From: an uncultured Nitrospirota bacterium
Lineage (GTDB): Bacteria; Nitrospirota; Nitrospiria; 2-01-FULL-66-17
DNA length: 64,000 nt
Assembly (NCBI GenBank): GCA_964570625.1
Contig: CAZMYW010000019.1
Span: 11,842 to 75,841, forward strand
Direction of reading: 5' to 3'
In this document: positions 2,612-64,000 of the stretch, in pieces
Position numbering within the stretch: the first letter of the stretch is position 1
Layout: each line of letters begins with the position of its first letter
Program-made: the position numbers and the translations under genes
The notes under the pieces: model-generated
What the model was told of the DNA's origin: nothing
What the model saw: the letters and a program-made list of their open reading frames with translations, nothing else
Databases searched by the model: none

Positions 2612-2617
2612 GTCTCG

Positions 2618-8501: not shown

Positions 8502-8505
8502 CGCC

Positions 8506-33635: not shown

Positions 33636-33797
33636 GAAGGTTCGTTGCGAAACGGTGCAGACGCCCGCGAAACGGGCGTTCGGAGCCGTGAAGGCGGGAG
33701 GCGTACTCTCTGCGGTACGTTGACCGCCTGAGCGGCGAGACCGCCCGTTACAGCGGCGTATCCACGGTTGCAGCAGAAGGTTCATGAATAATCCGGG

Positions 33798-47053: not shown

Positions 47054-47136
47054 CCCTCACTCCTCCGACGGAAAGACCTTCTTCCAGTCCCTCTTGATGT
47101 CCACGACCGTCCGGCACCATGACCTGCCGCGGTGCG

Positions 47137-47835
47137 TCACGACCGATCAGAGCCCAGCCATTTGTAAAACCAGCCCGCGCCCAGGGCTCCGAGCATCGGC
47201 GCGACCCAGAACAGCCAGAGCTGGCTGATCGCCCATCCGCCGACGAACACGGCCGGGCCGGTGCTGCGCGCGGGATTCACGGATGTCTGAGTGACTGGAA
47301 TGCTGATCAAATGGATCAGGGTCAGCCCCAAGCCAATCGCAATGGGCGCAAACCCTTTAGGCGACTTGGGGTCGGTCGCACCGAGAATGATGACGAGGAA
47401 CATGAAGGTGAACACCACTTCCGCCATAAAACCGGCTTGCAGGCTGTACCCGCCCAGAGAATGCTCCGCATATCCGTTCGCGGCAAAGCCTCGGCTGGGG
47501 TCAAAACCCGATGCGCCGCTGGCAATGAGATATAAGACGCCCGCGCCCAACACGCCTCCCACGACTTGCGCCGCGATGTAGGGAGGCAACTCAGCCGCCG
47601 GGAAGCGGCCCCCCGCCCAGAGTCCGACTGACACCGCGGGATTCAGATGACAGCCCGAGATGTGGCCGATGGCGTATGCCATGGTCAGCACGGTCAACCC
47701 GAACGCCAACGACACCCCCAGCAGCCCGATCCCGATGTCCGGGAATGCCCCGGCCAGCACCGCGCTCCCGCATCCGCCCAACACGAGCCAGAACGTGCCC
47801 ACCGACTCTGCGACCGACCGTTTCACTAACGACAT
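47137..47835 (-). CDS. aqpZ: aquaporin Z
   Basis: It has two NPA motifs ([18 protein letters not shown]) and 6 TM helices. The start is at MSLVKR. Confidence 0.85.
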
Positions 47836-47923
47836 TGGCTCCCTCCCTCGCGATGAAAAGCTCCACACCACCCCATGTCATACAACGACCAACCCCGCGT
47901 CTATCTCCATTGGTAACTGGTGC

Positions 47924-48226
47924 TCAGCCGGTTTTTCTGAACACGATGCGATACACGAGCAGAATCAGCATGGCGCCGACCACCGCGGCCACGAATCCGG
48001 AAAACTCCCCGGCGCTGGAAAGCTTGAAATAGTGCCCGAGATAGGTCGCCAGGCTCGATCCGGCGATGCCGAGCAGCGGTGTCACGATCAGCCCGCTGGG
48101 ATCATCACCCGGCATGATGAGGGTGGCCGCGATACCGGCCACCGCTCCGATGACAATGGTGCCCACGATGCCCATGGCGCCGAGCGACTCCAGAATCGAC
48201 TGGACCTGTTCCATATGCGTCTCCAT
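47924..48226 (-). CDS. GlsB/YeaQ/YmgE-family (transglycosylase-associated) small membrane protein
   Basis: 100 aa with Gly-zipper TM helices (IVGTIVIGAVAGIAATLIMPG). Confidence 0.6.
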   Translation of the reverse strand: METHMEQVQSILESLGAMGIVGTIVIGAVAGIAATLIMPGDDPSGLIVTPLLGIAGSSLATYLGHYFKLSSAGEFSGFVAAVVGAMLILLVYRIVFRKTG

Positions 48227-48310
48227 AAGGAAATACCGCCGTTGCTTGGCTCCTAACGCTCGCCCACATCCGCGAGAAACTACTCCTTCGGTGCGATGTT
48301 CTGCAAGTGT

Positions 48311-48604
48311 TTACTTCGGGAAAATCGTGTTCCAGTCCTTCTTCATGTCCACCACCGTCCAGCCCTTGGCCTTCGCCTCGTCCAGCGCCTTGTCGAGTTG
48401 ACCGATGTGTGACTTGCGGTCGTAGGCCCATTCGCGCTCGGCATCGGTGTGGTGAACGACCAGGGCGAAACGTGGGCCGCTCCCGGAGGTCGCCCATTGG
48501 AGCATCTGCAAATCGCCGTCGGAGTTGCCGAAGGCCGCGATCGGACGGCGGCCGATGTGCATGAATTCGGCCTTCCCGAAGTTCTTATGCCCTGGCAGCA
48601 TCAT
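48311..48604 (-). pseudogene. 5'-truncated HAD-hydrolase gene fragment (C-terminal 97 codons), paralog of 49974..50984
   Basis: The protein ..IGRRPIAAFGNSDGDLQMLQW..DAEREWAYDRKSHIGQLDKALDEAKAKGWTVVDMKKDW aligns with the C-terminus of the full-length HAD protein. Nucleotide identity to the full gene is about 80%. Confidence 0.6.
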
Positions 48605-48660
48605 ATCCAGTTACCAGAACCAGGAAAAACATGAGTTAGACTCCCGATTTTCATGGTAAT

Positions 48661-49830
48661 ATGCAGGCCATGCTCGAGCGTTCCGGACACTTGGCCATCC
48701 TGCAGCGCCTGCTCCGGCAGTTTCCGGTGGTGGGTTTGATCGGCGCGCGACAGGTCGGCAAGAGCACGCTCGCACGCGCGTTGGTCGAGCGGGCCGGCGG
48801 GCGAGCGGCGTTCTTCGATCTCGAGGACCCCCGAGCGCTGGCGCGTCTCGACGCGCCCATGCTCGCCCTTGAAGGGCTCAGGGGCTTGGTCGTGCTCGAC
48901 GAGATCCAGCGCCGGCCCGACCTCTTCCCGGCGCTGCGCGTGCTGGCGGACCGACCCCGTCGCCCCGCGCGCTTCCTTGTGCTCGGCAGTGCTTCGCCGC
49001 CGCTCTTGCGTCAGAGCTCCGAGACGCTCGCCGGGCGCATCGCCTACCACGAACTCTTCGGGTTCGATCTGTCCGAGGTCGGACCGCGGGCGCTCGAGCG
49101 GCTGTGGCTTCGAGGCGGGTTCCCGCTGTCGTTCACCGCCAGAACGGAGGCGGCAAGCTTCCTCTGGCGCCGACAATTCATCGCGACGTTCGTCGAGCGG
49201 GAGATTTCGGAGCTGGAGCTGCGTCTCTCGCCCGCCGTCATCGGGCGCTTCTGGAACATGCTCGCTCACTATCACGGGCAGACCTGGAACGCGGCCGAGC
49301 TCGCTCGGGCTTTCGGCGTGTCGGAGAAGACCGTGCGTAGCTATCTCGATTTTCTGGTCGCGACGTTCGTCGCGTTTCGCCTGCCTCCCTGGCACGAGAA
49401 CGTCGGCAAACGCGAGGTCAAGGCGCCCAAGGTTTACCTCTCCGACAGCGGGCTGCTGCATGCCATGTTCGGCGTGAGTACGCGCGATGATTTGCTCGGA
49501 CATCCGAAACGCGGCGCATCCTGGGAAGGCTTCGCGATCAGCCAGGTCATCAGCCGCCTCGGCGCCCATCCCCGGGAGTGCTTCTTCTGGGGTCTCCACT
49601 CCGGAGCGGAGCTCGACCTTCTGGTGATGCGCGGGCTGGTGCGCCTGGGCTTCGAGGTGAAACACACGGATGCACCCGAGGTGACGCCCTCGATGCGCTC
49701 CGCGCTCGACAACCTGCGACTGTCCCATCTCTACGTCATCCATGCGGGCAAAGAAACATTCTCGCTGGGACCGAAGATCACGGCATTGCCCCTCGGTCGC
49801 GTGTGGACGGACCTCGGCGAGATCAGGTGA
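48661..49830 (+). CDS. AAA+ ATPase with C-terminal DUF4143 (PD-(D/E)xK-like) domain, copy 1
   Basis: It has a Walker A GARQVGKST, Walker B VVLDEIQ, and ..KAPKVY.., GFEVKHTD (E-x-K). Confidence 0.75.
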   Translation: MQAMLERSGHLAILQRLLRQFPVVGLIGARQVGKSTLARALVERAGGRAAFFDLEDPRALARLDAPMLALEGLRGLVVLDEIQRRPDLFPALRVLADRPRRPARFLVLGSASPPLLRQSSETLAGRIAYHELFGFDLSEVGPRALERLWLRGGFPLSFTARTEAASFLWRRQFIATFVEREISELELRLSPAVIGRFWNMLAHYHGQTWNAAELARAFGVSEKTVRSYLDFLVATFVAFRLPPWHENVGKREVKAPKVYLSDSGLLHAMFGVSTRDDLLGHPKRGASWEGFAISQVISRLGAHPRECFFWGLHSGAELDLLVMRGLVRLGFEVKHTDAPEVTPSMRSALDNLRLSHLYVIHAGKETFSLGPKITALPLGRVWTDLGEIR

Positions 49831-49973
49831 GAGCGCGCGAGGCGCGTCACCTGTCGCCCGGAATCGAGAGCATCCCCTGGACCGAAATTGCCTCCGGTCA
49901 GGTGGACGTGTTCTGACATCGTCGTCATTGACTTCCGTCCGGTAAGCCGTGCTCCACCGTTGTTCCAGCTTCC

Positions 49974-50984
49974 TTACTGCTTTTCGAACGCGAACACGCG
50001 TTTCCAATCCGCCTTCATGTTCACGACCGTCCAGCCCTTCGCCTTCGCCTCGTCGAGCGCCTTGTCCAACTGCCCGACGGATGACGCGCGGTCGTACGCC
50101 CATTCGCGGTCGGCATCGGTGTGGTGGATCAGCCCCATAAAACGCGGCCCACTTCCCGCAGCCGTCCACTGCAGCATCTGCAGGTCACCGTCGGAGTTGC
50201 CGAAGGCCAAGATCGGACGCCGCCCGATGAACTTGTGGATGCCCACCGGCTTGCCGGCCTTGTCGTCGATGAAGTCGATCTCGGGCAGACGCATCAGCAC
50301 CGGCTTGCCGTCGCGTAGATCAAGCTTGGTCTTGATGCTGCTGCCGACCACCTGCTCGGGCGGGATGCCATACACTCTCTCCGTCCACGGCCGCATGAAC
50401 TCGATGCCGCCCCCGGACACGATGAAGGTCTTGAACCCGTTGGCCCGGAGATAGGCCAGCAGGTCAAGCATGGGCTGGTACACCATTTCGGTGTAACGGC
50501 GTTTGGTCTTCGGATGCCGGGCGATCATGATCCAGTCCGTGACAGCCTGCTCGAACTCCTGAGTGGTCATGCCCGCGTGCGTGGCCATCACGATTTCGAG
50601 GATCGCTCGTTCACCACCCGCAAGCGCGCCTTTCACGTCGCCTTTCAGCAGCGAGGCGAACGGCTCCTTGTCCTTCCACTCCGGGTGTTGCGGCGCGAGC
50701 GCCTTGACCCGGTCGAGCGCGAACGCGAGCTGAAAATACATGGGCTGTTCGGCCCAGAGCGTGCCGTCGTTGTCGAAAACCGCGATGCGTTCGGCAGGCG
50801 GGACGAAGTCCGGCGAGCCGTCCTTGGTCACCTTCGCAACGAATTGAGTGACGGCCTTCTTGGCCGCCCCGTCGTTCCACGAGGGAAGCGGATCGGCCGT
50901 CTGCGCGTGTGCAGTCGTCGCAACGGCGCCCATCAGCATGTACGCGAGGGCGGCGATGAGGTTTCGCGTACGGGTGGTTTTCAT
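49974..50984 (-). CDS. HAD-superfamily hydrolase (HAD-IB/PSP-like phosphatase), secreted
   Basis: It has motif I VFDNDGTLW, a C-terminal GNSDGDLQML motif and the signal peptide MKTTRTRNLIAALAYMLMGAVATTAHA (shared module). Confidence 0.65.
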   Translation of the reverse strand: MKTTRTRNLIAALAYMLMGAVATTAHAQTADPLPSWNDGAAKKAVTQFVAKVTKDGSPDFVPPAERIAVFDNDGTLWAEQPMYFQLAFALDRVKALAPQHPEWKDKEPFASLLKGDVKGALAGGERAILEIVMATHAGMTTQEFEQAVTDWIMIARHPKTKRRYTEMVYQPMLDLLAYLRANGFKTFIVSGGGIEFMRPWTERVYGIPPEQVVGSSIKTKLDLRDGKPVLMRLPEIDFIDDKAGKPVGIHKFIGRRPILAFGNSDGDLQMLQWTAAGSGPRFMGLIHHTDADREWAYDRASSVGQLDKALDEAKAKGWTVVNMKADWKRVFAFEKQ

Positions 50985-51203
50985 CGTTGTGTCCTCTCGG
51001 GGTTGGTTGTTACTCGGTTTCTTCGTGCACTTTTTTCCAATCGGTGTTTCATTGCTCCCGATCATGGTGGGGGAATATGCCTTGAAAAGTCGGTGGGATC
51101 AACCGAGTTTTCAAGGTCCAATTTCGACCGAATATGGCATGTCGTTACCCCCACCGCACGCGAAGGCGAGCGCGACGGCGTCGAAGCATGGCCCTGACCG
51201 TCG

Positions 51204-51929
51204 CTACTCTTTCAGCTTGATCGGCTTCACGCGAATGACACCCGCGGTGACGGTGGCTGACACGCCTGCGTCGGTGATGAAATGGACCGAATATCCCTTA
51301 TCCGTTCCAACGTCACCGCTCCCCGCGCCGCCCGCAGCACCTGTCTCTCCAACCTTGGCGGCCGCTTCTGCGCCGGCCTGCGCCTCCCATTCACCCTTGA
51401 TAAAATGCTTGAACTTCTTTTCATCCTGAAAGATCAACACAGGCCGTACGCTTCTCGCTCCCCAGCCTCCACCGATATCGAACCGCTCCATTTTGATGTA
51501 GGTCTTTTCTTCGGTCTTCGTCTCGATCGCCACGCCGTATCCGCTGCCTGCTCCGACAACCGGGATCTTCGTGATCTTGTTGTTCATGATCGCGTAGCCA
51601 ACGGACCTCTCTATCGCTTCCTTGGTCTTCGGTTCCTGCGTGTACAAGTCGGACAGCGTTCGCTCGACCAGCTCGTCGATCGTTTGCTCCTGCTCCGCGC
51701 CTGTTTTGCCGGGCACGCCGGCACAGCCGAACATGCCGACGACAAGGAACCACAGGCTAAAACCGGTCAGTGCGGTTGATCTCAGGTACAGCCTCCTCTG
51801 AGTGGGCGTTAAAGCCGGCACACCCACAAGCGCAGCGGCGATGAGGTCATACTTGTGTGCGGTTTTCACCGTTGTGTCCTTTCGCCAACGAGCGGTGGCG
51901 ATGAGATTTTGTGTGCAGGCGATTTTCAT
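51204..51929 (-). CDS. hypothetical lipoprotein (Gly-rich; SYLF/Ysc84-like?)
   Basis: The 5' end carries a tandem duplicated signal-peptide module; the second start is GTG 51870, [19 protein letters not shown]. It has a lipobox FGCAG. Confidence 0.45.
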
Positions 51930-52357
51930 CGTTGTATCCTTTCGGTGATGTTTCGTGACCTACTTTCCACCGCTCGCATTTCCCGCTCGTTCCGAAGGCC
52001 CGCCATGCACCAAACGGCCATCGCCGCGTGAAGGACCACGGCCGGCCAGAGGCCGATGCCGGAGAGCCCCAAGCCGGTGCCGGTATAACCGAGCACCGCG
52101 ACGGCGCCGGTGTTGTAGAGCAACATGGCCGCGACCAATCCTCCCGCTACGCGGTTCTGCGCGTCGTTGCGCGCCAGCCAGCAGGCGAGTGCCAGCGCCA
52201 GCAGCGCCGCGCCGGCCAACCGGGCCACCACCAAGCCGCCGGGCGTGTCGAGAGATGTACCGAGCAGCACCGACGCCATCACCGATGGCGCGATCATCAG
52301 CCCCAGGCCGGCGCCCAGCTCAATCAGGGCCGTCACGATGAGCAGCGTTCTCATCAC
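51926..52357 (-). CDS. small 4-TM membrane protein (paralog of 53434..53883)
   Basis: 143 aa, hydrophobic. Its stop overlaps the next start (ATGA). Confidence 0.5.
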
Positions 52358-52502
52358 ATCATACTCAACCTATCGCCCCGTGCCCCTCGAACATCTCGAA
52401 CTTCGGGAGGCACTCAATGGTCATCCTGTGAATTCCAACGGACACTTCCCTTGCCAATTGCCAAATCTCAAGCTTCTTATAGCTCATCACCCACCCTCAT
52501 TC

Positions 52503-52655
52503 GGGATTCGTGATCCGGGATGCGAGATTCGCGATCCGAGATTCGAGATTTGCAGTGCTTGATCCGAGATGCGTGATTCGCGATTCGGAATATCTCGCAT
52601 CCCGCATCCCGTTTCTCGCATCTCGCAACTCGCATCCCGTATCTCGTATCTCGAC
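52503..52655. repeat. ~150-bp imperfect palindrome built from ~11 tandem 7-bp units per arm (GAT[T/C/G]CGN ... NCG[C/T]ATC)
   Basis: Left arm: gattcgt gatccgg gatgcga gattcgc gatccga gattcga ... gatccga gatgcgt gattcgc gattcgg. Right arm: cgcatcc cgcatcc cgtttct cgcatct cgcaact cgcatcc cgtatct cgtatct. It lies immediately 3' of gene 52658..53437. Confidence 0.7.
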
Positions 52656-52657
52656 AG

Positions 52658-53437
52658 TTACTTTGTGAGGGTCAACGGCTGCGTCAACGTCACGTCCGCC
52701 ACCGTACCGGCAGGAACCTTGAGGTTATTTCCTGGTCCCAGCAGCCCCACGCCGGCGCCGATCATGGCCCCTTTGCCGGCGCCAGACCCCCCGTCAACAG
52801 CTCCCCCGATGAGCGCGCCGGCAGCGGCTTTCCGAACAACCTTGCCCCCCTCGCTCTCAGCGCCGATGTGGCCGGTCGCGATCGGCACGAGCTGGTCGTT
52901 GATACTCAAATCGGTGAAGGTCATCATGATCGCCGCCTTGCCGACGCGCCTTCCGCCGATTGATTCCGTCACCGTGCCGAATACCTTGGTCCCCTTGGAG
53001 ACGATGACTGATCCGCCGCTCGCGAGATCGGTGTCCAAGACGCCGGTCACCCGGCTCCCCTTCTTGTGCGACGCCGTGCTCACGTCATGATCCAGCTTGA
53101 CCATGAGCCGCGTGCCCACCGGCAATGTCCCTGCCGCAGTCTGCGCCCCCGGAGCAGGGGTAGGCGCCGCGGGGGCTGGCGCCGATGCGGCGCGAGGCGA
53201 GTTGAAGGTGACGGACATGATGTCGGTGATGGCATAGGTCTGAACCACGCCCCCAGCCTCGACGACGACCGTCGCGTCGTTTCCGCCCTTGAACAATCCC
53301 TGCACGACCCGGCCGTCCTTGAGCATGATGGTATCGGCGCCGGCGGGTCCGGCTGCGAACAGCACTGCGACCAGACCGGTTTGCACAATAGTCCTGATTC
53401 TTTTCCTGTCATAAGCTCCGAGAGAGAACCGGTTCAT
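52658..53437 (-). CDS. hypothetical secreted protein (Gly/Ala-rich C-terminal half)
   Basis: It has a signal peptide and a [11 protein letters not shown] linker. Its start overlaps the upstream gene's stop. Confidence 0.45.
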
Positions 53438-53883
53438 GGCTGTGCTCCTTTCATGTGGTTCATTCGGTCGCGTTCACCCGCGTGCCGAAGGCACGCAACG
53501 CACCAGCCGGCCATCGCCGCGTGAAGAAGTACTGCCGGCCAAAGACCGACGCCGGAGAGTCCCAAATCTAGACCTGCAAAACCGAGGACCGCAACAGCGG
53601 CCGCGTTATAGAACAGCATGGCCGCGACCAGCCCCATGGTTGCGCGGCTCTGTGGGTCGTTACGCGCCAGCCAGCAGGCGATGCCCAGCGAGAGCAGCGC
53701 CGCCCCCGCCACACGGGCCACCACCACTCCGGGCGTGTCGAGCGATGTGCCGAGCAGCACCGGCGCCAGCACCGACGGTGCGATCACGAGCCCCAGGCCG
53801 GCTCCCAGCTCAATCACTGCGGTCGCGATGAGTAGCGTCCTCACGGGAATATCTGTTTCCAGTCTTGCTTCATATCCCACCAC
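53434..53883 (-). CDS. small 4-TM membrane protein (paralog of 51926..52357)
   Basis: About 70% aa identity to the 51926 ORF (..[32 protein letters not shown]..). Confidence 0.5.
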
Positions 53884-53913
53884 GGTCCCGGCGTTCGCCG
53901 TCGCTTCGCGCGA

Positions 53914-54207
53914 CTATTGGGCCGGAATGGTGATCAAGGGCAGCTTCTCGTTGCCGCCGGTGTCCGCCAGCGTGAAGAAAAACATGATCGCTGTCATCGC
54001 GCGCTTCGTTTGCCGGGCTTGAGCCGCTCCGGCTCCTTCCGCCACTACATCGGGGAATCCTGGACCGTCGGTCCGGCGACGCTGGCGGAGGGCGTTGGCG
54101 GAAAGGGCAACACGGAGCCGTCGTCGGCTGCCTGAGCTACGTCCGCTGTGAGCCAGCACGCAAGCGAGCGCGGCGGCGATGAGGATCGGCGTGTGGGTGG
54201 TTGTCAT
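53914..54207 (-). pseudogene. chimeric gene remnant: shared signal-peptide module + unrelated Arg-rich middle + last 33 codons of the 57009..58133 lipoprotein gene
   Basis: The C-terminal KRAMTAIMFFFTLADTGGNEKLPLITIPAQ is identical to the 57009 gene's C-terminus. About 100 nt are near-identical, including the downstream non-coding region. Confidence 0.6.
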
Positions 54208-54243
54208 GGTTCTGACCTTTCGGTGGTTGGCAGGATTTTCCCA

Positions 54244-55398
54244 TTAGGAGACTCCACGAAGGTGTTTTATCTTTTCAAAATCACATATTGAAATGACCTG
54301 AATGCGTTCACCCAAGTCATAATTTTCTTTCCCAGGGTAAATAACGAATAATTTTTCTAACTTTAAATCATGCACGGCAATTCGCATGGATGGTGTGAGG
54401 CTTGGACGATCACTGAGCTTGATCTCAAAGCCAATTTTTCTTCCATTCTTAAGAAAGAGAAGATCCAATTCCGCCCGATTATGGGTTGCCCAAAAATAGG
54501 CGGCATCCGGTTGTACCTGTTTGAATAAGTCCTCAATCACATATCCCTCCCAGGACATCCCGCGCTTCGAATGATCTCTAAAGTCTTTCTCGTTTTGAAT
54601 TCCAAGCAGCAAGTGTAAAAGTCCTGAATCACGGACATACACCTTGGGCGCCTTCACCTGTCGTTTGCCAAGATTTTCGTGCCATGGCTGAAGCTGACGC
54701 ACCATCAAAAGATGATCCAGATAATCCAGATATTTTCGTACCGTCGGCTGGCTCACTCCGAGCGATGACGCGGGATCAGCCGCGTTCCACATCTGACCAT
54801 GGCTGTGAGCCAGCATCGTCCAAAATCGGCGGAACATTGGCGCCGGTATGTTGAGTCCCATCTGTGGGACATCCCGCTCAAGAAACGTTTGAACAAATTC
54901 CTTACGCCAGGCGTAACTGATTGCATTGGTGCCGGCAAGAAATGACTGTGGAAATCCCCCACGGAACCAATGTGTTTTTAGTTTGCGATGCGTCGCCTCT
55001 TTGAGCGAAAAACCGCTCATGAAAATCGTTTCAACCCTTCCGGCAAGGGACTCGGACGACTGTTTTAAAAGCGCCGGACTTGCACTGCCTAAAATTAAAA
55101 ACTTGGCAGGCAATGGTTTGCGGTCTGAAAGCACGCGCAATAATGGGAACAGCTCCGGTTTACGATGAATTTCATCAATCACGACAAGTCCGCGAAGCCC
55201 CGCGAGCTCCGATTTGGCGTCTTCAAGACGCACCAAATCATCCGTGTCTTCCAAATCAAAATAATTCTTCTTCTCCGCAGATAAAAACTGCCGAGCAAGG
55301 GTTGTTTTGCCGCATTGACGCGGCCCCAGCAACACCACAACTCGGCTACGCTGAATCGCTTTTTGAACGTGTTCGATCAATTGTGGCCGTTTAATCAC
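54244..55398 (-). CDS. AAA+ ATPase with DUF4143 domain, copy 2 (low-GC, probably horizontally acquired)
   Basis: It has a Walker A GPRQCGKTT, Walker B VVIDEIH, KAPKVY and GFEIKLSD. Local GC is visibly about 45-48% against about 62% in the flanks. Confidence 0.75.
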   Translation of the reverse strand: MIKRPQLIEHVQKAIQRSRVVVLLGPRQCGKTTLARQFLSAEKKNYFDLEDTDDLVRLEDAKSELAGLRGLVVIDEIHRKPELFPLLRVLSDRKPLPAKFLILGSASPALLKQSSESLAGRVETIFMSGFSLKEATHRKLKTHWFRGGFPQSFLAGTNAISYAWRKEFVQTFLERDVPQMGLNIPAPMFRRFWTMLAHSHGQMWNAADPASSLGVSQPTVRKYLDYLDHLLMVRQLQPWHENLGKRQVKAPKVYVRDSGLLHLLLGIQNEKDFRDHSKRGMSWEGYVIEDLFKQVQPDAAYFWATHNRAELDLLFLKNGRKIGFEIKLSDRPSLTPSMRIAVHDLKLEKLFVIYPGKENYDLGERIQVISICDFEKIKHLRGVS

Positions 55399-55704
55399 GA
55401 CGGGAGTGTACCATGAAATATGAAACTATATATTTCAATTTTCATTATGTAATTTCACGGACCTGAAACAGCCCCGATCAGAAATCAAACCCCAATGCCA
55501 AATTCAGGCGGACATCATTTTTCTTCGGCACCACGCCGTCGGCCCCCGGGTTGTGGATATGCGGTGCGATCCCAGATTAACGACATGTCGAAATCGAACA
55601 CCCGGGTCAAGGCGGTCAACGCGAAGTTCCCAATCAGCAGAACCGCAGCGAGGCTCGCACGGGTCTTCGTGACATTCGGCAGTTCTTCGCCCTGGCCACC
55701 GCGA

Positions 55705-56895
55705 TCAGAACAATAGGACCTTGATCAGGTAGTCCACGACCTTCTCGAGCGGAACCATCGTCAGCGTGAGCGGCAGCAACGGCGCGGCCGTCACCACGGC
55801 GAGCCGCAGCACCACCTCTTTCCCGAACGGCACCCGCCGCATCTCGCGCACCACCGCGTAGCTGTTCCCGAGGTCGGCCAGCGACTGGATATCGCTGCTG
55901 CCCAACAGGCCCTCGTCCTTCGGCGCGCCTCCGCGGATCCACTTCGCCTCGAATTCCCGCACGTACCGGTTGACCAGCGAGCCGTACTCGCGCCGGCCCT
56001 GCCGCCACGCGCGCGTGAGGTGCGGCGTGAACAGGACAAGCGGGCTGAGGATGACCAGCACGAAGAAGGACACAAAGGCGACGATGTCGAGCTTGAAGGC
56101 CAACAGGCTCTGTCCCTCGAAAAAAATCCGGTTGGCGATCATCCCGGCGAGCAGGACGCCGTGGGCGAACAGGATTGCCTCAAAGGCGTAGGCGGTGTTG
56201 TCCAGAAACCCCATTCCACCGGTTCGATCCGCGTGGGTCGGTACGAGGTGCAGGTTCAATCGCGAAACGCGCCACACAAACCATATCCAGACGAAGAACC
56301 GCAGATACCACTGAAAGAAGATGAACTGAAAAAGCGGAATGCTCACAAAGACGTACCAGGACCCGGCGAGCGTCAGGGTGAGGCCCGCGCCCTCCGGGTG
56401 TGCAGACCAGGTCGCGGAATCAAGCGCGACTTGGGTTCTCCACAGCCACTGTCCCACCGTATAGACGAATACCGCCAACCCGCTTTGCACGATGACCGAG
56501 TTGACCACCCGCATGACCGAGTCGATCGCCGCGCGGAACGCCGGTCGATCTTCGGGAATCACGATGCCCCGGTCCACGAGCTGGTGGACCACGGATTGGA
56601 GCCGATTATGGGAGATCCGATCGGCGATGATCAGCACCGGCAGTGCAAGCAGATATCGGAGGTGCGCCTCGAAGTCGTACAGGAACGGAACCGTGATGGA
56701 GCCGCCCAGCGCGTGACCTTCGAGCGCCGACAGCAGCAGCAGCGGTAGCCACGCGATCAGGGCAATAAGTGCGACTCGTCGCCCCGCACGCCCTAGTTGG
56801 GGATCGGCGACCCCCGTCCGCAGGCACAGCCGATAGAGCGGCCCCTGCACCAGCGAGAACTCGGGCAACTCCTGGGAAGGCTCAGGATGAGTCAT
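55705..56895 (-). CDS. hypothetical polytopic membrane protein
   Basis: It has about 8 TM helices. Its start lies 3 nt downstream of the 57009 gene, so they are probably co-transcribed. Confidence 0.45.
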   Translation of the reverse strand: MTHPEPSQELPEFSLVQGPLYRLCLRTGVADPQLGRAGRRVALIALIAWLPLLLLSALEGHALGGSITVPFLYDFEAHLRYLLALPVLIIADRISHNRLQSVVHQLVDRGIVIPEDRPAFRAAIDSVMRVVNSVIVQSGLAVFVYTVGQWLWRTQVALDSATWSAHPEGAGLTLTLAGSWYVFVSIPLFQFIFFQWYLRFFVWIWFVWRVSRLNLHLVPTHADRTGGMGFLDNTAYAFEAILFAHGVLLAGMIANRIFFEGQSLLAFKLDIVAFVSFFVLVILSPLVLFTPHLTRAWRQGRREYGSLVNRYVREFEAKWIRGGAPKDEGLLGSSDIQSLADLGNSYAVVREMRRVPFGKEVVLRLAVVTAAPLLPLTLTMVPLEKVVDYLIKVLLF

Positions 56896-57008
56896 TCGCG
56901 GCTCCACACACGGTAGGTGATATCGTCCATCATTGATGCAGGTGCCCCCAGGGTCCCGCCTTTCACCGTCGCTTCGCTCGGCACATTCATCTGGTGTGGT
57001 TCGCACGC

Positions 57009-58133
57009 CTATTGCGCCGGAATGGTGATCAAGGGCAGCTTCTCGTTGCCGCCGGTATCCGCCAGCGTGAAGAAAAACATGATCGCCGTCATCGCGCGTT
57101 TCGTTTTCCAGTCGCCGTCATCGATCCAGAACCAATAGTCGCGGTAATACACAGCGGCAAACGCGTCTACCGGCTTGTCCTTTCCGCTGTGAATTCGCAC
57201 CACGTCCCGCCGGGTCTCCGCGGAGGCGTTTTCGAAGTTGGGCAGCGCGCGGTGGGCCTTCAGGTGCGCCTCGGGCACGTCCAGATAGCTGGCGAACGCT
57301 CCCATGATTTGTAGCATCGAGCGGCTGTTGACAGCCAGTTCGCCCTCCGCCCCACGCCCCGGCGAATAGGTGAGCACGAACTTTTGCCCCTCGGCGGGCA
57401 TCTTGAGCAACCGCCGGACTTCTGCCGCCTTTTCCAGGATGTCGGCGGGCACGTCCTCACGCCGGAAGAACACGACGCCGGTTGAGCCTTTGGCCTTGTC
57501 CTCCTCCACGCGCATCCCGACAGCGCCAGCGGCCTGCACCTCGCGCAGCAATTCCAGCGCGCGCACAAACTCCGGGTCCGCCTCCCGCACCGCGCCGCCC
57601 GTCGTCGAACGATTGCGCACCCCGTTGAGCGACTCGACGGTCAGGCCCAGAATGAAGTTCGCCGGGTAACCCGATTGCAGCATAAAGAAAATGTTCTTCG
57701 GATCAATCGGCGTGATCAACCCGCGCAAAAACTTTTCCCCGGTCATCGGCACGTAGGTGATGGTGGGCCGGTCGGTGTAGATGGCCTGCGCCCCCGCCGA
57801 CATAAAATTGCCCTGGATCGCATTTTTGGACGAGACGGTGCCGCCGACGTTCACGCCGGTCTGCAACGAGTAGCCGGCGACGATGGACGCCACGTCCACA
57901 AACACCGGCAGGTCCATGTAGCGCAGCTTGACGATGTTCAGCAGCGTCTGCTGTTTCCACGAATCGGCGATGGCCGTGCTGTAGTCGAAACGGTCCACCG
58001 TCATGGTCTTGGGACCGAGGTGCGTGCAGCCGGCGAACAGCGCCGCCGCGAGACACAGGCTCAGTTTCGTTGCAGCGAGGCCATGGAAGCGGCGCGCGTC
58101 GGCCAGGAGGTTTGGTGTGCGTGTGGTTTTCAT
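57009..58133 (-). CDS. hypothetical lipoprotein
   Basis: It has the shared module MKTTRTPN.. and a lipobox LFAGC. It is about 375 aa. Confidence 0.5.
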   Translation of the reverse strand: MKTTRTPNLLADARRFHGLAATKLSLCLAAALFAGCTHLGPKTMTVDRFDYSTAIADSWKQQTLLNIVKLRYMDLPVFVDVASIVAGYSLQTGVNVGGTVSSKNAIQGNFMSAGAQAIYTDRPTITYVPMTGEKFLRGLITPIDPKNIFFMLQSGYPANFILGLTVESLNGVRNRSTTGGAVREADPEFVRALELLREVQAAGAVGMRVEEDKAKGSTGVVFFRREDVPADILEKAAEVRRLLKMPAEGQKFVLTYSPGRGAEGELAVNSRSMLQIMGAFASYLDVPEAHLKAHRALPNFENASAETRRDVVRIHSGKDKPVDAFAAVYYRDYWFWIDDGDWKTKRAMTAIMFFFTLADTGGNEKLPLITIPAQ

Positions 58134-58170
58134 GGTTGTGTCCATTCAGTTGTTGATTGGTTTGGCCATT

Positions 58171-59589
58171 TCACTTCGGCGGAGTGTAAGGATCAGGCGT
58201 GCCCATCGGAATGAGCGGATACTTTTTCACGCTCTGCTCGAACGCGCCCACGATTTTCAGAACCGGACCAACCACCCACGAATCCGCCGTTGGCTTCTCT
58301 TCGCGCGGATCGGTGTAGAGGTTGTAAATGGTCGGCGTAGGGTTCTTGACCGGCGGATCGAACATGGTGTCCTGGCGCATGAAATGCAATTTCCAGTTAC
58401 GCCACTTCACTGCTTGCAAACGTTCTGCTCCCCAGACTGGGAAACCTTCCCGCGCCGACTTTTCGGTCTTGCCGAGGAAAAAGGCAGACTGATCAATGCT
58501 GTCGAACGGCCGATCCATGGGTACTTTGGCACCGCTGAATCTGGCGAGTGTCGCAAATAAATCCACGCCATGCACAATCTCGTTGCTTACGCGTTCGGCG
58601 GCGATCTTACCGGGCCAGCGAATCAGGAAGGGCACGCGAATGCCGCCCTCGAGTGCGGTGAAATACGCGCCACGCCAAGGGCCGGCCCAACCGTCCCAAG
58701 GCTTGAGGAATTAGGCCCCATTGTCGCTGGTGAAGATGAAGATCGTGTTGTCGCGCACGTTCGCCTTGTCTACCGCGTCGAGAATCTGGCCGACGTTGGC
58801 ATCCATTTCGGCAAGCATGTCCGCCCAGTCCCCGTTGCCGGTCTTGCCGGCGAAGGCAGGATTCGGCAGTGTGGGCAAGTGCGGCTGAGTAAGCGCCACA
58901 TAGGCGAAGAACGGCTTGCCGGACTTGGCCCCCCGCTCGATGAACGCGACCGAGCGCCGGGTGATTTCCGCATCAATGAGTCGCCGCTGCACCACATCGT
59001 AAATTCCCAACTCGCGGCTCTTCTCGCTCTTCTTGCCTTCCATCATGTGTTCCGCCGGCATAATGTCGGAGGACCATCCGGGCGAAGTTGGCCAGAGCGA
59101 TTCATCCGTCGTGCGCGGGATGCCGAACCACTCGTCGAAACCCTGGTCGTTGGGCAACCGTCCGTCGTGACTGCCGAGATGCCACTTACCGTAGTAGCCG
59201 GTCGCGTAGCCCGCGTCCGACAGCGCCTCGCCGATGGTCACTTCCCACTGCGTGAGGCCGTCGGCCACACCGCCAAACGGCACGGAATGGGTGCCCGAGC
59301 GGATCGCCCACCGGCCGGTCATCAGGCTGGAACGGCTCGGCGTGCACTGCGTCTCCATGTTCATGTTCAGCAGGCGTAGGCCCTCTTTGGCGAGACTGTC
59401 AATGCGCGGGGTGGCTGCGCCGCGTGTGAGTCCCCCGCCGTAACTGCCGATTTCGCCGTATCCAAGATTGTCGGTCAGGATGAAGACGATGTTGGGTTTG
59501 TCCGCTGCGTGGGCAGCGGTCGAGGTGATGAACGCCAGCACGCCAACGAGCGCGGCGGCGATGAGGCTTTGGTCGTTTTTGGTTTTCAT
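58171..59589 (-). pseudogene. arylsulfatase gene interrupted by a single in-frame TAA (plus-strand TTA at 58711..58713)
   Basis: The N-terminal ORF 58711..59589 carries the CTPSRSSLMTGR formylglycine motif. The C-terminal ORF 58171..58635 is in the same frame. The frame reads ..FTSDNGA*FLKPWDGW.. whereas the intact paralog reads ..FTSDNGGEFVKPWDGW... Confidence 0.7.
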
Positions 59590-59677
59590 GGTTGTGTCCT
59601 TATCAGTGATTGATTGGTTTGTTCACTTCACCTTTTCGATGTCCGGTGGCGGCCAGCGCGTTGTCGCACCACGGCGT

Positions 59678-60919
59678 TCATAGCTGTGACCACGGCAGGG
59701 CAGTCACCCGGTCGGTGAGCGCCAGCGGGGCAGAGCAGCGGCAAATGACGTAGCCGTGCCGGGCACGTTTCGGGTGTTCGTCCAGAAACGTCAGCAGATG
59801 TCGCGCGTCGCCGGACGTAGGGTGCTCGGTCCATTTCACTTCGATGGGAATGAGCCGGCCGGCGCGGGCAATGATGAAATCCACTTCCGCGCCCGCCTTG
59901 GTGCGCAGGTAATGCAGTTTGCCGCCGCCCAGATATTGCAGACGTTTCCACAACTCAATGCCCACCCATTGCTCAAACACGGGTCCGGGATTCGCTCGGA
60001 TCGCGGCGGCTTCCAACGGCAAATCGGCAGCGGCATTGCGAACGCCGACGTCGAAAAAGCAAAACCGCTCCGTGGACAGCAGGCTCTTGCGCGGACTCCC
60101 AGAAAATGCCGTCACCCGAAACCCGAGGAACATGTCTTCGAGCAACTGATAGTAGGTCTTCACCGTCGGCAGGCTGACCCCGGCCTCGCGGGAAATCCCG
60201 GCGTAGTTGATCATCCGGCCGGACTCGGCGGCGGCCAGTTGCAGGAACCGGGAGAAGGCCGGCCAGTTTTTCACCAGCGCCTCGCGCCGCAGCTCCTCCT
60301 CCAGATACACCACCGTGTAGGCGCGCAAGAGATCGGCGCGATGAGCATGAGTGGCGGTCGCCACGCCGGGCAGCTCGCCAAATGTGAGCCGCTCGAACAA
60401 GTCGGCGGCGGCGAACCGACGCTCATCCACCGCCCCGCGCGCGGGCATCGGCAACGGCGACTCGGCCCGCATCTTCCCGGCGCCGGCCGGCGGGCGCTCC
60501 GCCAGCAGCAGCGGATACAAATGATGCAGGAAACTGCGCCCCGGCAGCAGGTTCGCGCCCGTCACGCGTAGCTTGCGGGCGGAACTGCCACACAACACAA
60601 AACGCCACCGACGCTTGTCGGAATCGTAGAGATGCTGCACCGCGTCGAAGATCGCCGGCACGTTTTGCGCCTCGTCCACCACGACCGTCGCGGGGCGTCG
60701 CGATTTCGGCAGCGCCCGGCACCGCTGGACGAGCAGATCGGGGTTGCGCAGGTATTCGGCGCGTTCGGCGGGCCGGGAGAAATCCAGCCAGACCGGCGGC
60801 TCCGGCAGCAGTTTGTGCAGCAACGTGGACTTGCCGGTCTGGCGCGCACCGAACACGAGATGCACGTATGGCGCGGCAAGTTTCTTCTTCCACAGCGGTT
60901 CGACCCAGCGACCAAACAT
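59678..60919 (-). CDS. AAA+ ATPase with DUF4143 domain, copy 3 (divergent subfamily)
   Basis: It has a Walker A GARQTGKST, Walker B VVVDEAQ and ..DFIIARAGRLIPIEVKWTE (D..E-x-K). Confidence 0.7.
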   Translation of the reverse strand: MFGRWVEPLWKKKLAAPYVHLVFGARQTGKSTLLHKLLPEPPVWLDFSRPAERAEYLRNPDLLVQRCRALPKSRRPATVVVDEAQNVPAIFDAVQHLYDSDKRRWRFVLCGSSARKLRVTGANLLPGRSFLHHLYPLLLAERPPAGAGKMRAESPLPMPARGAVDERRFAAADLFERLTFGELPGVATATHAHRADLLRAYTVVYLEEELRREALVKNWPAFSRFLQLAAAESGRMINYAGISREAGVSLPTVKTYYQLLEDMFLGFRVTAFSGSPRKSLLSTERFCFFDVGVRNAAADLPLEAAAIRANPGPVFEQWVGIELWKRLQYLGGGKLHYLRTKAGAEVDFIIARAGRLIPIEVKWTEHPTSGDARHLLTFLDEHPKRARHGYVICRCSAPLALTDRVTALPWSQL

Positions 60920-60980
60920 ATTGCCTGCTTTATAAACGCCCGACTATTCTAATGTCAACAATCTGATCGGTCCGCTCGCT

Positions 60981-61052
60981 TTAGACGACAAGGAGCGCCA
61001 ACGCGCCAACGAGCGCGGCGGCGAGGAGGGTTGGTCTGACCGTGGCTTTCAT
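60981..61052 (-). other. orphan copy of the shared RBS+signal-peptide module encoding only MKATVRPTLLAAALVGALALLVV*
   Basis: ggaggaaacagacATGAAAGCCACG..CTCCTCGCCGCCGCGCTCGTTGGCGCGTTGGCG is followed by a stop. It lies between ATPase 3 and the 61079 gene. Confidence 0.5.
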
Positions 61053-61078
61053 GTCTGTTTCCTCCGCTTCAGACTGAT

Positions 61079-61894
61079 TCACTTCGGGAACAGAAACGTG
61101 ACGCCGGCGCGAAGGCCGAGACCCTCCGGCCCGTTGTCCGGCGACTCGACCCAGTACCGCGCGCCCGCAAAAACCTGGAGGATCTGCGGGCCGACTTTCA
61201 GCAACTGCGACACCGTCGCATTCACCGGCACCGACCATTGGTCGTTCTCCCAGTCGTAGGTGGACTCCGTGTTGAGACCGAGAGTGGTTTTGGTCTTCGT
61301 GATGTAGGAGATAAACGGCTGTACGAAACTCAGGCTGATGTCTGCGCGGTCATCCTGGCCCGTGAGCGACCAGATCTGATTGGCCAACAGGCCGTAGGTC
61401 CAGCCGTTCTTCTGTTGCAGCGCCAGCACCGTCGGCCCCGCGCCCCACTTGCCGCCGCCGAGCACGTCGTCGGACGCCGTGGGATAGAGTCCCACCGGGC
61501 CGACCGCCAGAATCCACCCGCCGACCGGTTGCTTGGGAGAGAAGAAGAAACTCTGCACGATGTCGCCCAGGCCCGACTCACTGGAGCCCGGGGGCACGTT
61601 ATCGGCGTTCACCAACGGCACAATCGTCCGCGTGATGAGGTTCCAATCCTCGTTCAGCGAAAACGGCCAGACCGGCTGGACATTCAGCACGGACTTGGAT
61701 CCTTCATCGTTCGGGCCGATGTTCTCGTCGTAGTTGTACTGTAACGGCACGCTGATGAGCGCCGCCACCGGGTTCGCCAGTTTCTTCGCCAGCTCCGCCG
61801 CCTCGTCCCCCTCCTGCGCCTCTGCACCGGCGGCGACGGCCAGCACGCCAACGAGCGCGGCGGCGATGAGGTATTTTATGCGTTTGGTTTTCAT
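61079..61894 (-). CDS. exported/outer-membrane protein, hypothetical
   Basis: It has the shared module [26 protein letters not shown] and a C-terminal ..GVTFLFPK. The track ORF is extended to 62059. Confidence 0.5.
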   Translation of the reverse strand: MKTKRIKYLIAAALVGVLAVAAGAEAQEGDEAAELAKKLANPVAALISVPLQYNYDENIGPNDEGSKSVLNVQPVWPFSLNEDWNLITRTIVPLVNADNVPPGSSESGLGDIVQSFFFSPKQPVGGWILAVGPVGLYPTASDDVLGGGKWGAGPTVLALQQKNGWTYGLLANQIWSLTGQDDRADISLSFVQPFISYITKTKTTLGLNTESTYDWENDQWSVPVNATVSQLLKVGPQILQVFAGARYWVESPDNGPEGLGLRAGVTFLFPK

Positions 61895-61922
61895 GGTTGT
61901 GACTTCTCCTTGGTCGATTGTT

Positions 61923-62444
61923 TCAAAATGCAGCGACGCGTTGGATGACCCAGAACATGGCGACACTGCCGATGGCATACGGAGGAATGCGCCAGGCCCA
62001 CGCCGGCTGGAAGAAGTCGGTGAACATCCCGATGACGTTCGGCGGGGCATACACGACAAGTGGCCCGGTTTCCTTGAGGTCGAGGTAACTCATCGAGTAA
62101 ATCACGTCGCAGTTCGGCGTGGGTACCCAGGTCTTGGCGTTCATCCGGTCTTTCCAGATCGGCAGCACGTTGTAGCCTTTGCCGAACTTCGCCTCCGAGC
62201 CGTCGCGCATGCCGATGGTATTCAAGATGGGCAGCGTCTGCATGTAAGCCTCTATGCCCCGCTGCTGGAGGCGCTCTTGATTCAACTGCTCGACGGCCGC
62301 CCGATCCGGCCAGGTGCCGTTATACATTTGCTTCACGAGCGGTGGCATGTCGCCTTGCGCCTGCACAACGGTGGTTGTGAAAGCCAGTGCGCTGACGAGC
62401 GCGGTGACGAGGAGAGTTTTTGTTTTCATTTTTGTGATTTTCAT
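61923..62444 (-). CDS. DUF1254-like secreted protein (short; possibly truncated)
   Basis: It has a signal MKITKMKTKTLLVTALVSALAF and YNVLPIWKD..KTWVPTPNCDVIYSMSYLDLKETGPLVVYAPP. Confidence 0.4.
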   Translation of the reverse strand: MKITKMKTKTLLVTALVSALAFTTTVVQAQGDMPPLVKQMYNGTWPDRAAVEQLNQERLQQRGIEAYMQTLPILNTIGMRDGSEAKFGKGYNVLPIWKDRMNAKTWVPTPNCDVIYSMSYLDLKETGPLVVYAPPNVIGMFTDFFQPAWAWRIPPYAIGSVAMFWVIQRVAAF

Positions 62445-62504
62445 TGTTGTCTCCTGTCTTTGGTTGATTGGTTTGGTCATTTCACTTTCACTCGGTTTGC
62501 ACAT

Positions 62505-63929
62505 TCACTTCGGCGGCGTGTAAGGGTCCGGCGTGCCCATCGGGATGAGCGGATTGTCTTTCATGGTCGCATTGAACGCGCCCACTATTTTCAACATCGG
62601 AGTCACCACCCAAGTATCCACGGTCGGCTTCTCCTCGCGCGGGTCGGTGTAGAGGTTGATGATGAAGGGAATCCCAAGCTTCACCGGCGGATCGTACATC
62701 GTGTCCTGCCGGTAGAAGTGCAACTTCCAGTTGCGCCACTTCACGGCGGTCAGGCGGTCCGCGCACCAGATGGGGAAACCCTCGCGGGCCGACTTCTCGG
62801 ATTTGCCAAGCAGGAAATCGGACTGATCCACGCTGTCCATGGGCCGATCGTTGGGCACCTTGGCGCCGCCAATCCTCGCGAGTGTCGCGAACATGTCCAC
62901 GCCATACACGATCTCGTTGCTGACGCGCCCGGCGGGCACCTTCCCCGGCCAGCGGATCATGAACGGCACGCGAATCCCGCCTTCCAGCGCGGTGAAATAC
63001 TGGCCCCGCCACGGACCCGACCAGCCGTCCCACGGCTTGACGAATTCCCCGCCGTTATCGCTGGTGAAAACCACGATGGTATTGTCGGCGATGCTGAGTT
63101 TGTCCACGGCATCAAGCATCTGCCCGACGTTGCTGTCCATCTCGGCCAGCATGTCCGCCCAATCGCCGTTGCCCGTCTTGCCTTTGAAAGCCGGGTTCGG
63201 TTCGGTGGGCAGATGCGGCTGGGTCAGGGATGCATACATGAAGAACGGCTTGCCCGCCTTGGCCTGCCGCTCCATGAACGCCACCGAGCGCTTGGTGATT
63301 TCGGCATCGATGAGCCGGCGCTGAACGATGTCGTAGTCCTTCAAGGCAACACTCTTCCCGCCTTTTTTGCCCTCCATGATCTTTTCCAGCGGCACAATGT
63401 CCGGCGAGTAGCCAACCGAGGATGACCACAACGCCTCATCCGTCGTGCGCGGGATGCCGTACCACTCGTCGAAACCCTGATCGTTCGGCAGACGGCCATC
63501 GTGGCTGCCAAGATGCCACTTGCCGTGCAACGCCGTGGCGTAACCGGCCGCAGAAAGTGCCTCAGCCACCGTAACTTCCCATTGGGTCAAGCCTTCGGGC
63601 ACGCCACCAAATGGAACCGCATAGGTGCCGGAGCGGATGGCAAAGCGGCCGGTCATGAGACTGGAGCGGCTCGGCGTGCATTGCGTCTCCATGTTCATGT
63701 TCGTGAGGCGCAGTCCTTCACTGGCGAGCTTGTCGATGCGCGGCGTAGGCGCTCCCCGCGTGGCTCCGCCGCCGTAGACGCCCAATTCGCCATAGCCCAG
63801 GTTATCCGCCAGGATGAAGAGGATGTTGGGTTGCTTGTCCGCTGCTTGGGCCGGAGCGAGGATGCCGAATACTGCCAGCGCGCAAACGAGCGCGGCGGCG
63901 ATAAAAATTCGGGTATGGAGGGTTTTCAT
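62505..63929 (-). CDS. arylsulfatase (formylglycine-dependent), intact paralog
   Basis: 474 aa with CTPSRSSLMTGR, GKWHLG and the shared signal module MKTLHTRIFIAAALVCALA. Confidence 0.85.
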   Translation of the reverse strand: MKTLHTRIFIAAALVCALAVFGILAPAQAADKQPNILFILADNLGYGELGVYGGGATRGAPTPRIDKLASEGLRLTNMNMETQCTPSRSSLMTGRFAIRSGTYAVPFGGVPEGLTQWEVTVAEALSAAGYATALHGKWHLGSHDGRLPNDQGFDEWYGIPRTTDEALWSSSVGYSPDIVPLEKIMEGKKGGKSVALKDYDIVQRRLIDAEITKRSVAFMERQAKAGKPFFMYASLTQPHLPTEPNPAFKGKTGNGDWADMLAEMDSNVGQMLDAVDKLSIADNTIVVFTSDNGGEFVKPWDGWSGPWRGQYFTALEGGIRVPFMIRWPGKVPAGRVSNEIVYGVDMFATLARIGGAKVPNDRPMDSVDQSDFLLGKSEKSAREGFPIWCADRLTAVKWRNWKLHFYRQDTMYDPPVKLGIPFIINLYTDPREEKPTVDTWVVTPMLKIVGAFNATMKDNPLIPMGTPDPYTPPK

Positions 63930-64000
63930 CGTCGGACTCCTCAGTTAATTTCAAAAATCATCAGACCGCACCCGCCGATGCGACACCCCGCGGAAGGCTT

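Follow-up and report, generated by a model that had tools for sequence, protein, structure and literature searches.

Three AAA_14–DUF4143 ATPase genes in a Nitrospirota leader array, a probable insertion hotspot

Three genes encoding AAA+ ATPases with a DUF4143 domain lie within 16 kb of a contig from an uncultured Nitrospirota bacterium, each beside a damaged copy of a gene that is intact nearby. Did the ATPases cause the damage? The original prediction, made on the 64,000-nucleotide (nt) stretch analysed here (the window; positions 11,842 to 75,841 of contig CAZMYW010000019.1, assembly GCA_964570625.1), answered that they might. It proposed either selfish insertions that repeatedly disrupted one paralogous family of secreted proteins, or an ATPase/nuclease-associated gene-conversion or cassette system acting on that family. 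We reach another answer. The region is probably a dispensable and repeat-rich hotspot of insertion and recombination, whose commonest cargo is ATPase genes of the PDC-S01 family, joined by toxin–antitoxin modules in sister genomes. Where a region is as unstable as this, finding nuclease-ATPase genes next to pseudogenes is no proof that the ATPases caused the decay.

The genes around the ATPases do not form one paralogous family. They belong to unrelated families (HAD, sulfatase, DUF1254/DUF1214, HupE, an unknown 378-amino-acid (aa) protein termed p378, and others without a Pfam match) and have in common only a homologous 5' module of about 110 nt, which we call the leader. Comprising the 5' untranslated region (5' UTR), the ribosome-binding site (RBS) and a signal peptide, this module opens at least 10 minus-strand genes or remnants between 50.9 and 64 kb. 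Self-comparison and an nhmmer profile locate it at 51024, 51950, 51884, 54246, 58176, 59633, 61085, 61926, 62486 and 63961, and neither approach found it in the first 48 kb of the window. The module starts at the end of the preceding gene, often as ...CCG-AAG-TGA-A, and runs through AAACCAATCAAC, the RBS GGACACAACC and ATG-AAA-ACC into about 20 signal-peptide codons of the LIAAALVG type. The codon choices common to the leaders (for example GCC-GCC-GCG and the rare GTT) point to a shared DNA ancestry and not to convergent signal peptides. A riboswitch or other structured 5' UTR was considered and dropped, as alifold revealed no consensus RNA structure in 40 leaders (mean z -0.27); no Rfam family was found in 47–64 kb.

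Probably, then, the 16-kb region is part of what we term a Nitrospirota leader array, in which genes for envelope and secreted proteins of unrelated families follow one another on the same strand. The literature searched holds no description of leader arrays or leader-delimited slots. The leader is itself subject to exchange. In L085, a contig from JGI and one of the related loci designated here by L numbers, the orthologue of the intact HAD gene is 93.6% identical at the nt level up to the signal-peptidase site (window 50908-51024 versus L085 10226-10300). Upstream of that site the two orthologues differ wholly in 5' UTR and signal peptide, MKAALAICAALALFVTAARA preceding the residues ADPLPSWND in one and MKTTRTRNLIAALAYMLMGAVATTAHAQT preceding the same residues in the other. 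As the switch coincides exactly with the signal-peptidase site, the module has been swapped on or off one of the orthologues.

Concerning the ATPases, the original prediction was accurate: Pfam, PADLOC and invariant motifs agree on what they are and where they lie. The three open reading frames (ORFs), of about 390–410 aa, match the Pfam profiles AAA_14 and DUF4143 with E values of 1e-19 to 1e-46 overall, and of 1e-19 to 1e-24 for the N-terminal P-loop domain AAA_14 (PF13173). Invariant in all three are a Walker A motif G-x-R-x-x-G-K-[ST], a Walker B motif hhhhDE and a C-terminal D...E-x-K, the last within DUF4143, a domain of the PD-(D/E)xK superfamily. Their architecture is that of an ORC/STAND-like AAA+ ATPase with a winged helix and a PD-(D/E)xK nuclease; a sequence search of the PDB with ATPase 2 as the query returned P-loop matches to RecA only. 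STAND/ORC-type NTPases such as Avs differ from the ATPases described here, which are much smaller, lack a sensor repeat domain and come from another sequence family.

All three proteins match the PADLOC models of PDC-S01 from end to end (PDLC04790, E 1e-68 to 1e-84). PDC-S01 groups candidate anti-phage defence genes only; it is reported to rank fourth in abundance among the defence candidates of prokaryotes and to be often present in several copies (PMC12988326). Literature on DUF4143, COG1373, AAA_14 and Nitrospira islands yielded only the PD-(D/E)XK classification and the PDC-S01 surveys. With the PDC-S01/COG1373 ATPases at large the three genes share both Pfam domains, the motifs, the single-gene organisation, the multiple copies and the horizontal spread reported for the family. 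They are ordinary members of a known and very abundant family and show in themselves nothing different. Only their setting differs, as minimal units of promoter and ORF in leader-delimited slots.

On the evidence of sequence comparison, the three ATPases are independent lineages that were acquired separately. ATPases 1 and 2 share 48% aa identity, and ATPase 3 is 23–28% identical to the other two. Dozens to more than 100 homologues at 78–98% aa identity are listed for each, and the source taxa named for those of ATPase 3 span several phyla. Homology to copies elsewhere starts about 40–47 nt before the start codon and does not reach past the stop codon or its close vicinity; the flanks are unrelated. 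ATPase 1 is 87% identical in nt sequence to copies in L086 and L088, confined to 48619/48624 through the stop at 49830, and ATPase 2 is 90.2% identical to a copy in L084, confined to 55445-54267. For ATPase 3, at 89% with L021 and 75% with L022, the shared segment begins at the -35 box (60962/60958), takes in the promoter hexamers and ends with the stop codon (59678). A simple sigma-70 scan places a promoter-like site upstream of ATPase 2 at 55453-55425; it omits the promoter of ATPase 3 because the -10 box TATAAA fails the scan's position-6 rule.

ATPase 2 has a GC content of 0.474 against 0.62 for the genome, and its relative in L084 sits in a contig of 49% GC; it is a low-GC unit of recent acquisition. 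All three genes behave as horizontally mobile single-gene units, and to this extent the idea of selfish insertions stands. A transposon or insertion sequence was also considered and dropped. Comparison of flanks and junctions revealed no terminal inverted repeats, target-site duplications or transposase around the three ATPases. Another candidate, an ATPase travelling as one unit with its downstream leader, was rejected because homology stops at or near the stop codon and because the same ATPase types stand in leaderless settings in L021, L022, L084 and L086.

The reading that we favour follows from the array being dispensable and full of dispersed homology, so that it would act as a hotspot of recombination and insertion. 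Gene bodies would be lost, fused or exchanged for others, with the leaders and 3' stubs left behind, and the remnants would arise from recombination among leaders, block insertions and point mutation. The AAA_14–DUF4143 genes would be independently acquired units of promoter and ORF, lodged in or beside the slots of the array. They may enter from other phyla by illegitimate recombination and move from slot to slot by homologous recombination, with the flanking leaders as homology arms. Such arms would explain the retention of a solo leader upstream and of a leader immediately adjacent downstream. The proteins themselves might serve in defence as NTP-dependent nucleic-acid-sensing nucleases that do not act on the array. 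The coordinates of the features discussed here and below are collected in Table 1.

Table 1. Features of the leader array and its left-hand border (window coordinates)
Feature	Coordinates	Strand	Remarks
Leaders	50911-51024, 51791-51950, 54136-54246, 58059-58176, 59512-59633, 60977-61085, 61822-61926, 62364-62486, 63855-63961	-	
Block of about 1.5 kb	47054-48557		Aquaporin aqpZ 47137-47871, transglycosylase-associated glsB-like 47924-48226, HAD 3' end; between 729-aa gene and ATPase 1
HAD 3' fragment	48311-48560	-	Right-hand end of the aqpZ/glsB-like/HAD block
ATPase 1	ORF 48661-49830	+	AAA_14+DUF4143, PDC-S01; conserved unit 48619-49830, about 42 nt upstream plus ORF
Intact HAD hydrolase	49974-51024	-	ATG 50984; leader 50911-51024 (nhmmer); Pfam HAD
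Tandem leaders before 221-codon gene (51204-51869)	51791-51950	-	Truncated 51883-51950 fused to complete 51791-51884; nhmmer
Empty-slot chimera	53905-54246	-	Leader and signal peptide 54136-54246, 135 unassigned nt, p378-type 3' stub 53905-54014
ATPase 2	54244-55445, ORF 54244-55398	-	AAA_14+DUF4143, PDC-S01; ORF plus AT-rich promoter region
p433	55705-57006	-	Overlapping partner of p378; no Pfam match; orthologue in L070/L080
p378, intact	ATG 58133	-	Leader 58059-58176; no Pfam match; orthologue in L070/L080
Sulfatase with nonsense codon	58171-59633	-	Leader 59512-59633 intact; Pfam Sulfatase
DUF1254/DUF1214 C-terminal stub	59623-59655	-	33 nt; encodes WPPPDIEKVK-stop; 22 nt downstream of ATPase 3 stop
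ATPase 3	59678-60962, ORF 59678-60919	-	AAA_14+DUF4143, PDC-S01; own promoter TTGACA-N18-TATAAA at 60958-60929
Solo leader	60977-61085	-	RBS, ATG 61052, 23 signal-peptide codons, stop; nhmmer 72 bits; directly upstream of ATPase 3 promoter
271-codon secreted protein, intact	61079-61926	-	Leader 61822-61926; no Pfam match
p193 chimera	61923-62486, ORF 61923-62444	-	Leader, about 146 codons of DUF1254 N-terminus, 27 codons of HupE_UreJ_2-type C-terminus (61923-62006), in-frame
Sulfatase B, intact	62505-63961	-	Leader 63855-63961; Pfam Sulfatase; 85% nt orthologues in L006, L070, L080

How much of the pattern could be pure coincidence, three members of a common, multi-copy family with unrelated pseudogenes for neighbours? 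The array holds at least seven scars, four of them beyond those first noticed, and when features are placed at random within it (7 scars, about 18 features), all three ATPases fall beside some scar with P 0.23. The claim that the threefold pairing exceeds chance is in this respect weakened; the clustering, with all three ATPases inside the 16 kb and the remaining 48 kb of the window free of them (P ~0.016), is less likely to be due to chance than their adjacency to scars.

Related loci speak against coincidence as well. A scan of genome contigs with a 19-nt leader core gave 20 singletons, about the chance expectation, with true leaders in L006 and L007 only; the leader core also found 53 loci in metagenomes, and both pattern scans together gave 39 loci with true leaders. 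An AAA_14/DUF4143 gene stands right beside a leader in 11 of these 39 loci, against none of 34 leader-negative hits of equal total length (Fisher 5.5e-4; 0.011 after near-identical loci were collapsed). In L007, from a Nitrospira metagenome-assembled genome, a leader with a truncated signal peptide of 30 codons comes first; behind it lie an ATPase of 395 aa that has a promoter of its own, the 3' fragment of a DUF1214 gene and then the next leader. This layout, in which the end of the previous gene, a truncated leader, an ATPase with promoter, a short stub and the next leader succeed one another, is found in at least six ATPase lineages. One ATPase type is found in different slots, in L069 versus L038/L061. 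With clustering, enrichment and a recurrent layout all opposing it, we hold pure coincidence to be unlikely.

Several of these loci are more intricate. A similar gene set in Nitrospira sp. CR1.3 (L022) includes two ATPases together with DUF433 and PIN-VapB; behind one of these ATPases lies the 3' remnant of a HAD gene. L043 shows nested insertions at 3290-5250: a truncated leader and an ATPase 1-like gene diverge from each other, and the second ATPase gene, which follows this leader, is cut short some 100 codons in by a duplicated piece of HigA, the full HigBA pair lying 1 kb away. L007 also carries, at 5912-6127 (the same as L051 5475-5690), a lone AAA_14/DUF4143 C-terminal fragment covering profile positions 322-379; the intact ATPase is about 600 nt distant and lies on the other strand.

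The recurrent layout brings in another explanation, in which the ATPases are homing-type selfish nucleases that recognise and cut leader or signal-peptide DNA, are copied in and destroy the gene behind. A solo leader with an ATPase and its promoter directly behind it, as seen for ATPase 3 and the L007/L041, L069, L075, L043 and L033 types, would be expected of such elements, and so would a PD-(D/E)xK domain with a winged helix–turn–helix, sharply bounded mobile units and an enrichment in leader loci. Free-standing homing endonuclease genes may likewise be flanked by the 5' and 3' ends of the host gene, as at ATPase 3 and in L007. However, homing genes occupy one defined site and leave their host otherwise intact, whereas here the body of the host gene has been lost instead of being split by the insert, the point of insertion is not fixed and the same sites also receive other cargo. 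About 20 of 50 leaders are truncated, and the truncated ones also precede HigBA (L066, L043), AbiEii (L037, L075), a bestrophin-like gene (L071), a p433-type gene (L032) or nothing but a 3' stub, in the empty slots of L031, L050/L058 and L077. Break points span profile positions 59-120, for ATPases and other inserts alike. The leaderless copies and the lack of target-site duplications and terminal repeats mentioned above also count against homing, as does ATPase 1, which lies outside any slot and whose neighbouring fragment is missing in L085. An nhmmer search found no leader at 49831-49973 or 55399-55704, and therefore neither ATPase 1 nor ATPase 2 has the solo-leader layout. We consider the homing explanation distinctly unlikely.

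Two other kinds of sequence recur next to leaders. A cluster at 52499-52654 resembling repetitive extragenic palindromes (REP) contains heptamer-type repeats, GGGAT[TA]CG.GAT / ATCCCG, with imperfect inverted repeats of 49-55 nt, and similar repeats are found just upstream of leaders in L007, L041, L047 and L038. Paralogous genes for small membrane proteins of 143 and 149 aa, without a Pfam match, lie at 51980-52353 and 53473-53843 (80% nt identity); homologues or 3' fragments of them adjoin leaders in L041, L047, L048, L049, L073 and L085. Far outside the array, about 180 nt at 33620-33799, between the minus-strand ORFs 32160-33785 and 33798-34979, match their own reverse complement at 69%.

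If the array is a hotspot, each defect beside an ATPase needs an account of its own. All three defective genes are real, as the original prediction had recognised. For the first, positions 48330-48557 are 80% nt identical to the intact HAD 3' end at 50002-50229. In L085 an ATPase 98% identical to ATPase 1 at the aa level lies between the orthologue of the 729-aa gene and an intact HAD gene. Window positions 48551-50907 align to this contig at 93.6%, and the alignment begins exactly at the break of the HAD fragment (~48557-48562); the aquaporin gene, the glsB-like gene and the fragment are all missing there. In the more distant Nitrospirota genome L088, the 729-aa orthologue stands directly beside the ATPase and the block is again absent. 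The joint inheritance of ATPase 1 and the HAD fragment was rejected on the basis of these two loci. Most parsimoniously, the aqpZ/glsB/HAD-3' block was inserted 100 nt upstream of an ATPase 1 already in place, in which case the HAD fragment would be a block edge and not a product of the ATPase.

Both comparators have further peculiarities. L085 possesses an aquaporin gene about 7 kb away. L088 contains, at 941-9161, three different AAA_14/DUF4143 genes within 8 kb, two of which flank a patatin gene with ParD-PIN between; this segment is syntenic to 41.7-49.8 kb of the window, where ATPase 1 alone is present.

The second defect is the empty-slot chimera, whose 110-nt stub (53905-54014) matches the p378 gene at its 3' end (57000-57109) with 93.6% identity. 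ATPase 2 ends at its stop codon and the leader of the chimera begins immediately after. A causal link between the two is a candidate only.

The third defect is of another nature. Positions 58159-59562 are 76% nt identical to sulfatase B at 62494-63902, and the reading frame is complete save for exactly one in-frame TAA, as predicted, at 58711-58713. It derives from a GAA codon (DNGA-stop-FLKPW versus DNGGEFVKPW in the paralogue). Being a point nonsense mutation, this defect was not made by the ATPase, although an indirect effect of ATPase 3 through lost upstream transcription is conceivable. The scars that matter at ATPase 3 are different ones. Motifs of the WPPPDIEKVK type end Pfam-confirmed DUF1254+DUF1214 genes (such as ..WMPPNVEKTK-stop in L060), and the DUF1214 stub downstream and the solo leader upstream are the genuine insertion scars. 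ATPase 3 stands in the place of a DUF1254/DUF1214 gene body, the only ATPase of the three in a gutted slot. Such a slot is what selfish insertion would produce; the HAD fragment and the sulfatase defect do not fit that idea, since L085 has ATPase 1 beside an intact HAD gene without the fragment and since the sulfatase carries a point mutation.

Other scars of the array are independent of the ATPases: the p193 chimera, the tandem leader and the point-mutated sulfatase itself. The p193 protein matches positions 2-60 of the 133 of the Pfam DUF1254 profile, over its last 27 aa it shares 74% identity with the C-terminus of a HupE_UreJ_2 protein in L036, and no ATPase is adjacent. In related loci, ATPase 1 is present without the fragment in L085, and the same kinds of scar occur beside toxin–antitoxin modules and in empty slots.

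Chimeras and swaps of this kind (53905-54246, p193 and the leader swap on the HAD orthologue), in the vicinity of ATPase-nuclease genes, are also what might be expected if the ATPases drove gene conversion or cassette shuffling to diversify the secreted-protein repertoire. Yet comparable scars exist where no ATPase does. The L070/L080 array, with a sulfatase B orthologue at 85.5% nt identity and p378 at 80%, has a sulfatase 3' fragment adjoining a PaaA2-ParE pair and a split p378. In L070 a 216-nt direct repeat (95.4%; 339-554 and 1559-1774) of the 5' end of a p433-type gene flanks an insert of about 1 kb with a CopG-like antitoxin gene, so that a scar of the same kind, a fragment plus an intact copy, came from a non-ATPase insert. 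Moreover, the products are truncated or nonsense genes and not full-length new variants, each ATPase belongs to an unrelated lineage with an acquisition of its own, and no recombinase, donor-cassette organisation or conserved RNA or DNA structure was found. The gene-conversion or cassette system first envisaged has no positive evidence in its favour, because break points are alike for ATPases and other inserts, target-site duplications and inverted repeats are absent and leaderless ATPase copies exist. We regard it as extremely improbable.

Could the scars be artefacts of assembly or sequencing, with mis-joins at the leader repeats of about 110 nt and a miscalled TAA? Repeats of this length can confuse short-read assemblers, and the TAA is a single base change. 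However, a mis-join at a leader would yield a leader with another gene body, not a leader with an ATPase promoter. The same junction types are present in independent assemblies from different samples (L007=L051, L041~L047, L038=L062~L061), and L085 independently confirms the segment from ATPase 1 to HAD. An artefact is therefore very unlikely.

Some observations weigh against the hotspot and against a defensive role of its cargo. The solo leader upstream has been kept in at least six ATPase lineages without obvious selection, which could point to targeting rather than passive retention. The position of each ATPase beside one of the three scars first noticed has P ~0.02, albeit post hoc. The 34 leader-negative controls for the enrichment come from other taxa, and a strain-level comparator for the slots of ATPases 2 and 3 was not found in the collections searched, from which the genome of the window is absent; look-ups of the exact proteins of ATPase 1, ATPase 2 and p378 gave no match. 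Finally, in E. coli no protection was obtained with one representative of PDC-S01 (bioRxiv 10.1101/2024.09.26.614923). In the most far-reaching alternative, the leader module is an integrase-free cassette platform of Nitrospirota, in which recombination in the leaders could exchange whatever DNA lies between two of them among slots and strains, and the ATPases are leader-recognising homing-type selfish genes or a nuclease that starts the exchange. We find this quite improbable; if true, it would give a mobility function to the very abundant PDC-S01/COG1373 family.

The hotspot reading places the array next to known systems, with which it should be compared. Like defence islands and integration hotspots, it is a variable region with several unrelated defence candidates, nested insertions and gene remnants. 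Unrelated defence and toxin–antitoxin genes do cluster in this strain-variable region: related arrays hold HigBA, AbiEii, ParE/PaaA2, PIN-VapB and more ATPases, and sister loci carry HigBA, AbiE, ParDE and PIN-VapB, as defence islands do. In the window itself the three PDC-S01 genes, unrelated to one another, are the only defence genes, and content differs between sister contigs. Unlike defence islands, the array lacks an integrase, tRNA or prophage framework; its residents are secreted enzymes and a repeated 5' module marks the slots.

The array also resembles integron cassette arrays in its tandem units of the same orientation, its recurring junction sequence and its strain-variable content. 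But its junction, the leader, lies at the 5' end and encodes an RBS and a signal peptide, and the inserted ATPases bring their own promoters. Neither an intI-type integrase nor a Phage_integrase domain was found in the 30 ORFs scanned at 35-64 kb, the array extending past 64000. The junctions show no attC-type imperfect inverted repeats, no attC-like hairpin and no Rfam match.

In Mycoplasma and Borrelia, families of lipoproteins and surface proteins share the DNA of their 5' UTR and signal peptide, differ in their mature parts and serve as a recombination substrate. In the leader array, by contrast, the mature parts come from enzyme families that have no relation to one another, the host is a Nitrospirota and no machinery for phase or antigenic variation is evident.

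The region works like a hotspot for defence and accessory genes. What is new, then, is its setting: genes for unrelated secreted enzymes have in common a 5' UTR and signal-peptide module that bounds the slots, and the most frequent occupants of these slots are bare ATPase units. The AAA_14–DUF4143 genes, among the commonest uncharacterised defence candidates of prokaryotes, are met here as bare units of promoter and ORF that jump between phyla and, in Nitrospirota, accumulate in one type of locus, the leader arrays. Should leader arrays serve generally as landing pads, they would offer a defined place in the genomes of nitrifiers in which to look for new accessory and defence genes, and a natural system for the study of how short dispersed homologies drive the gain and loss of genes.

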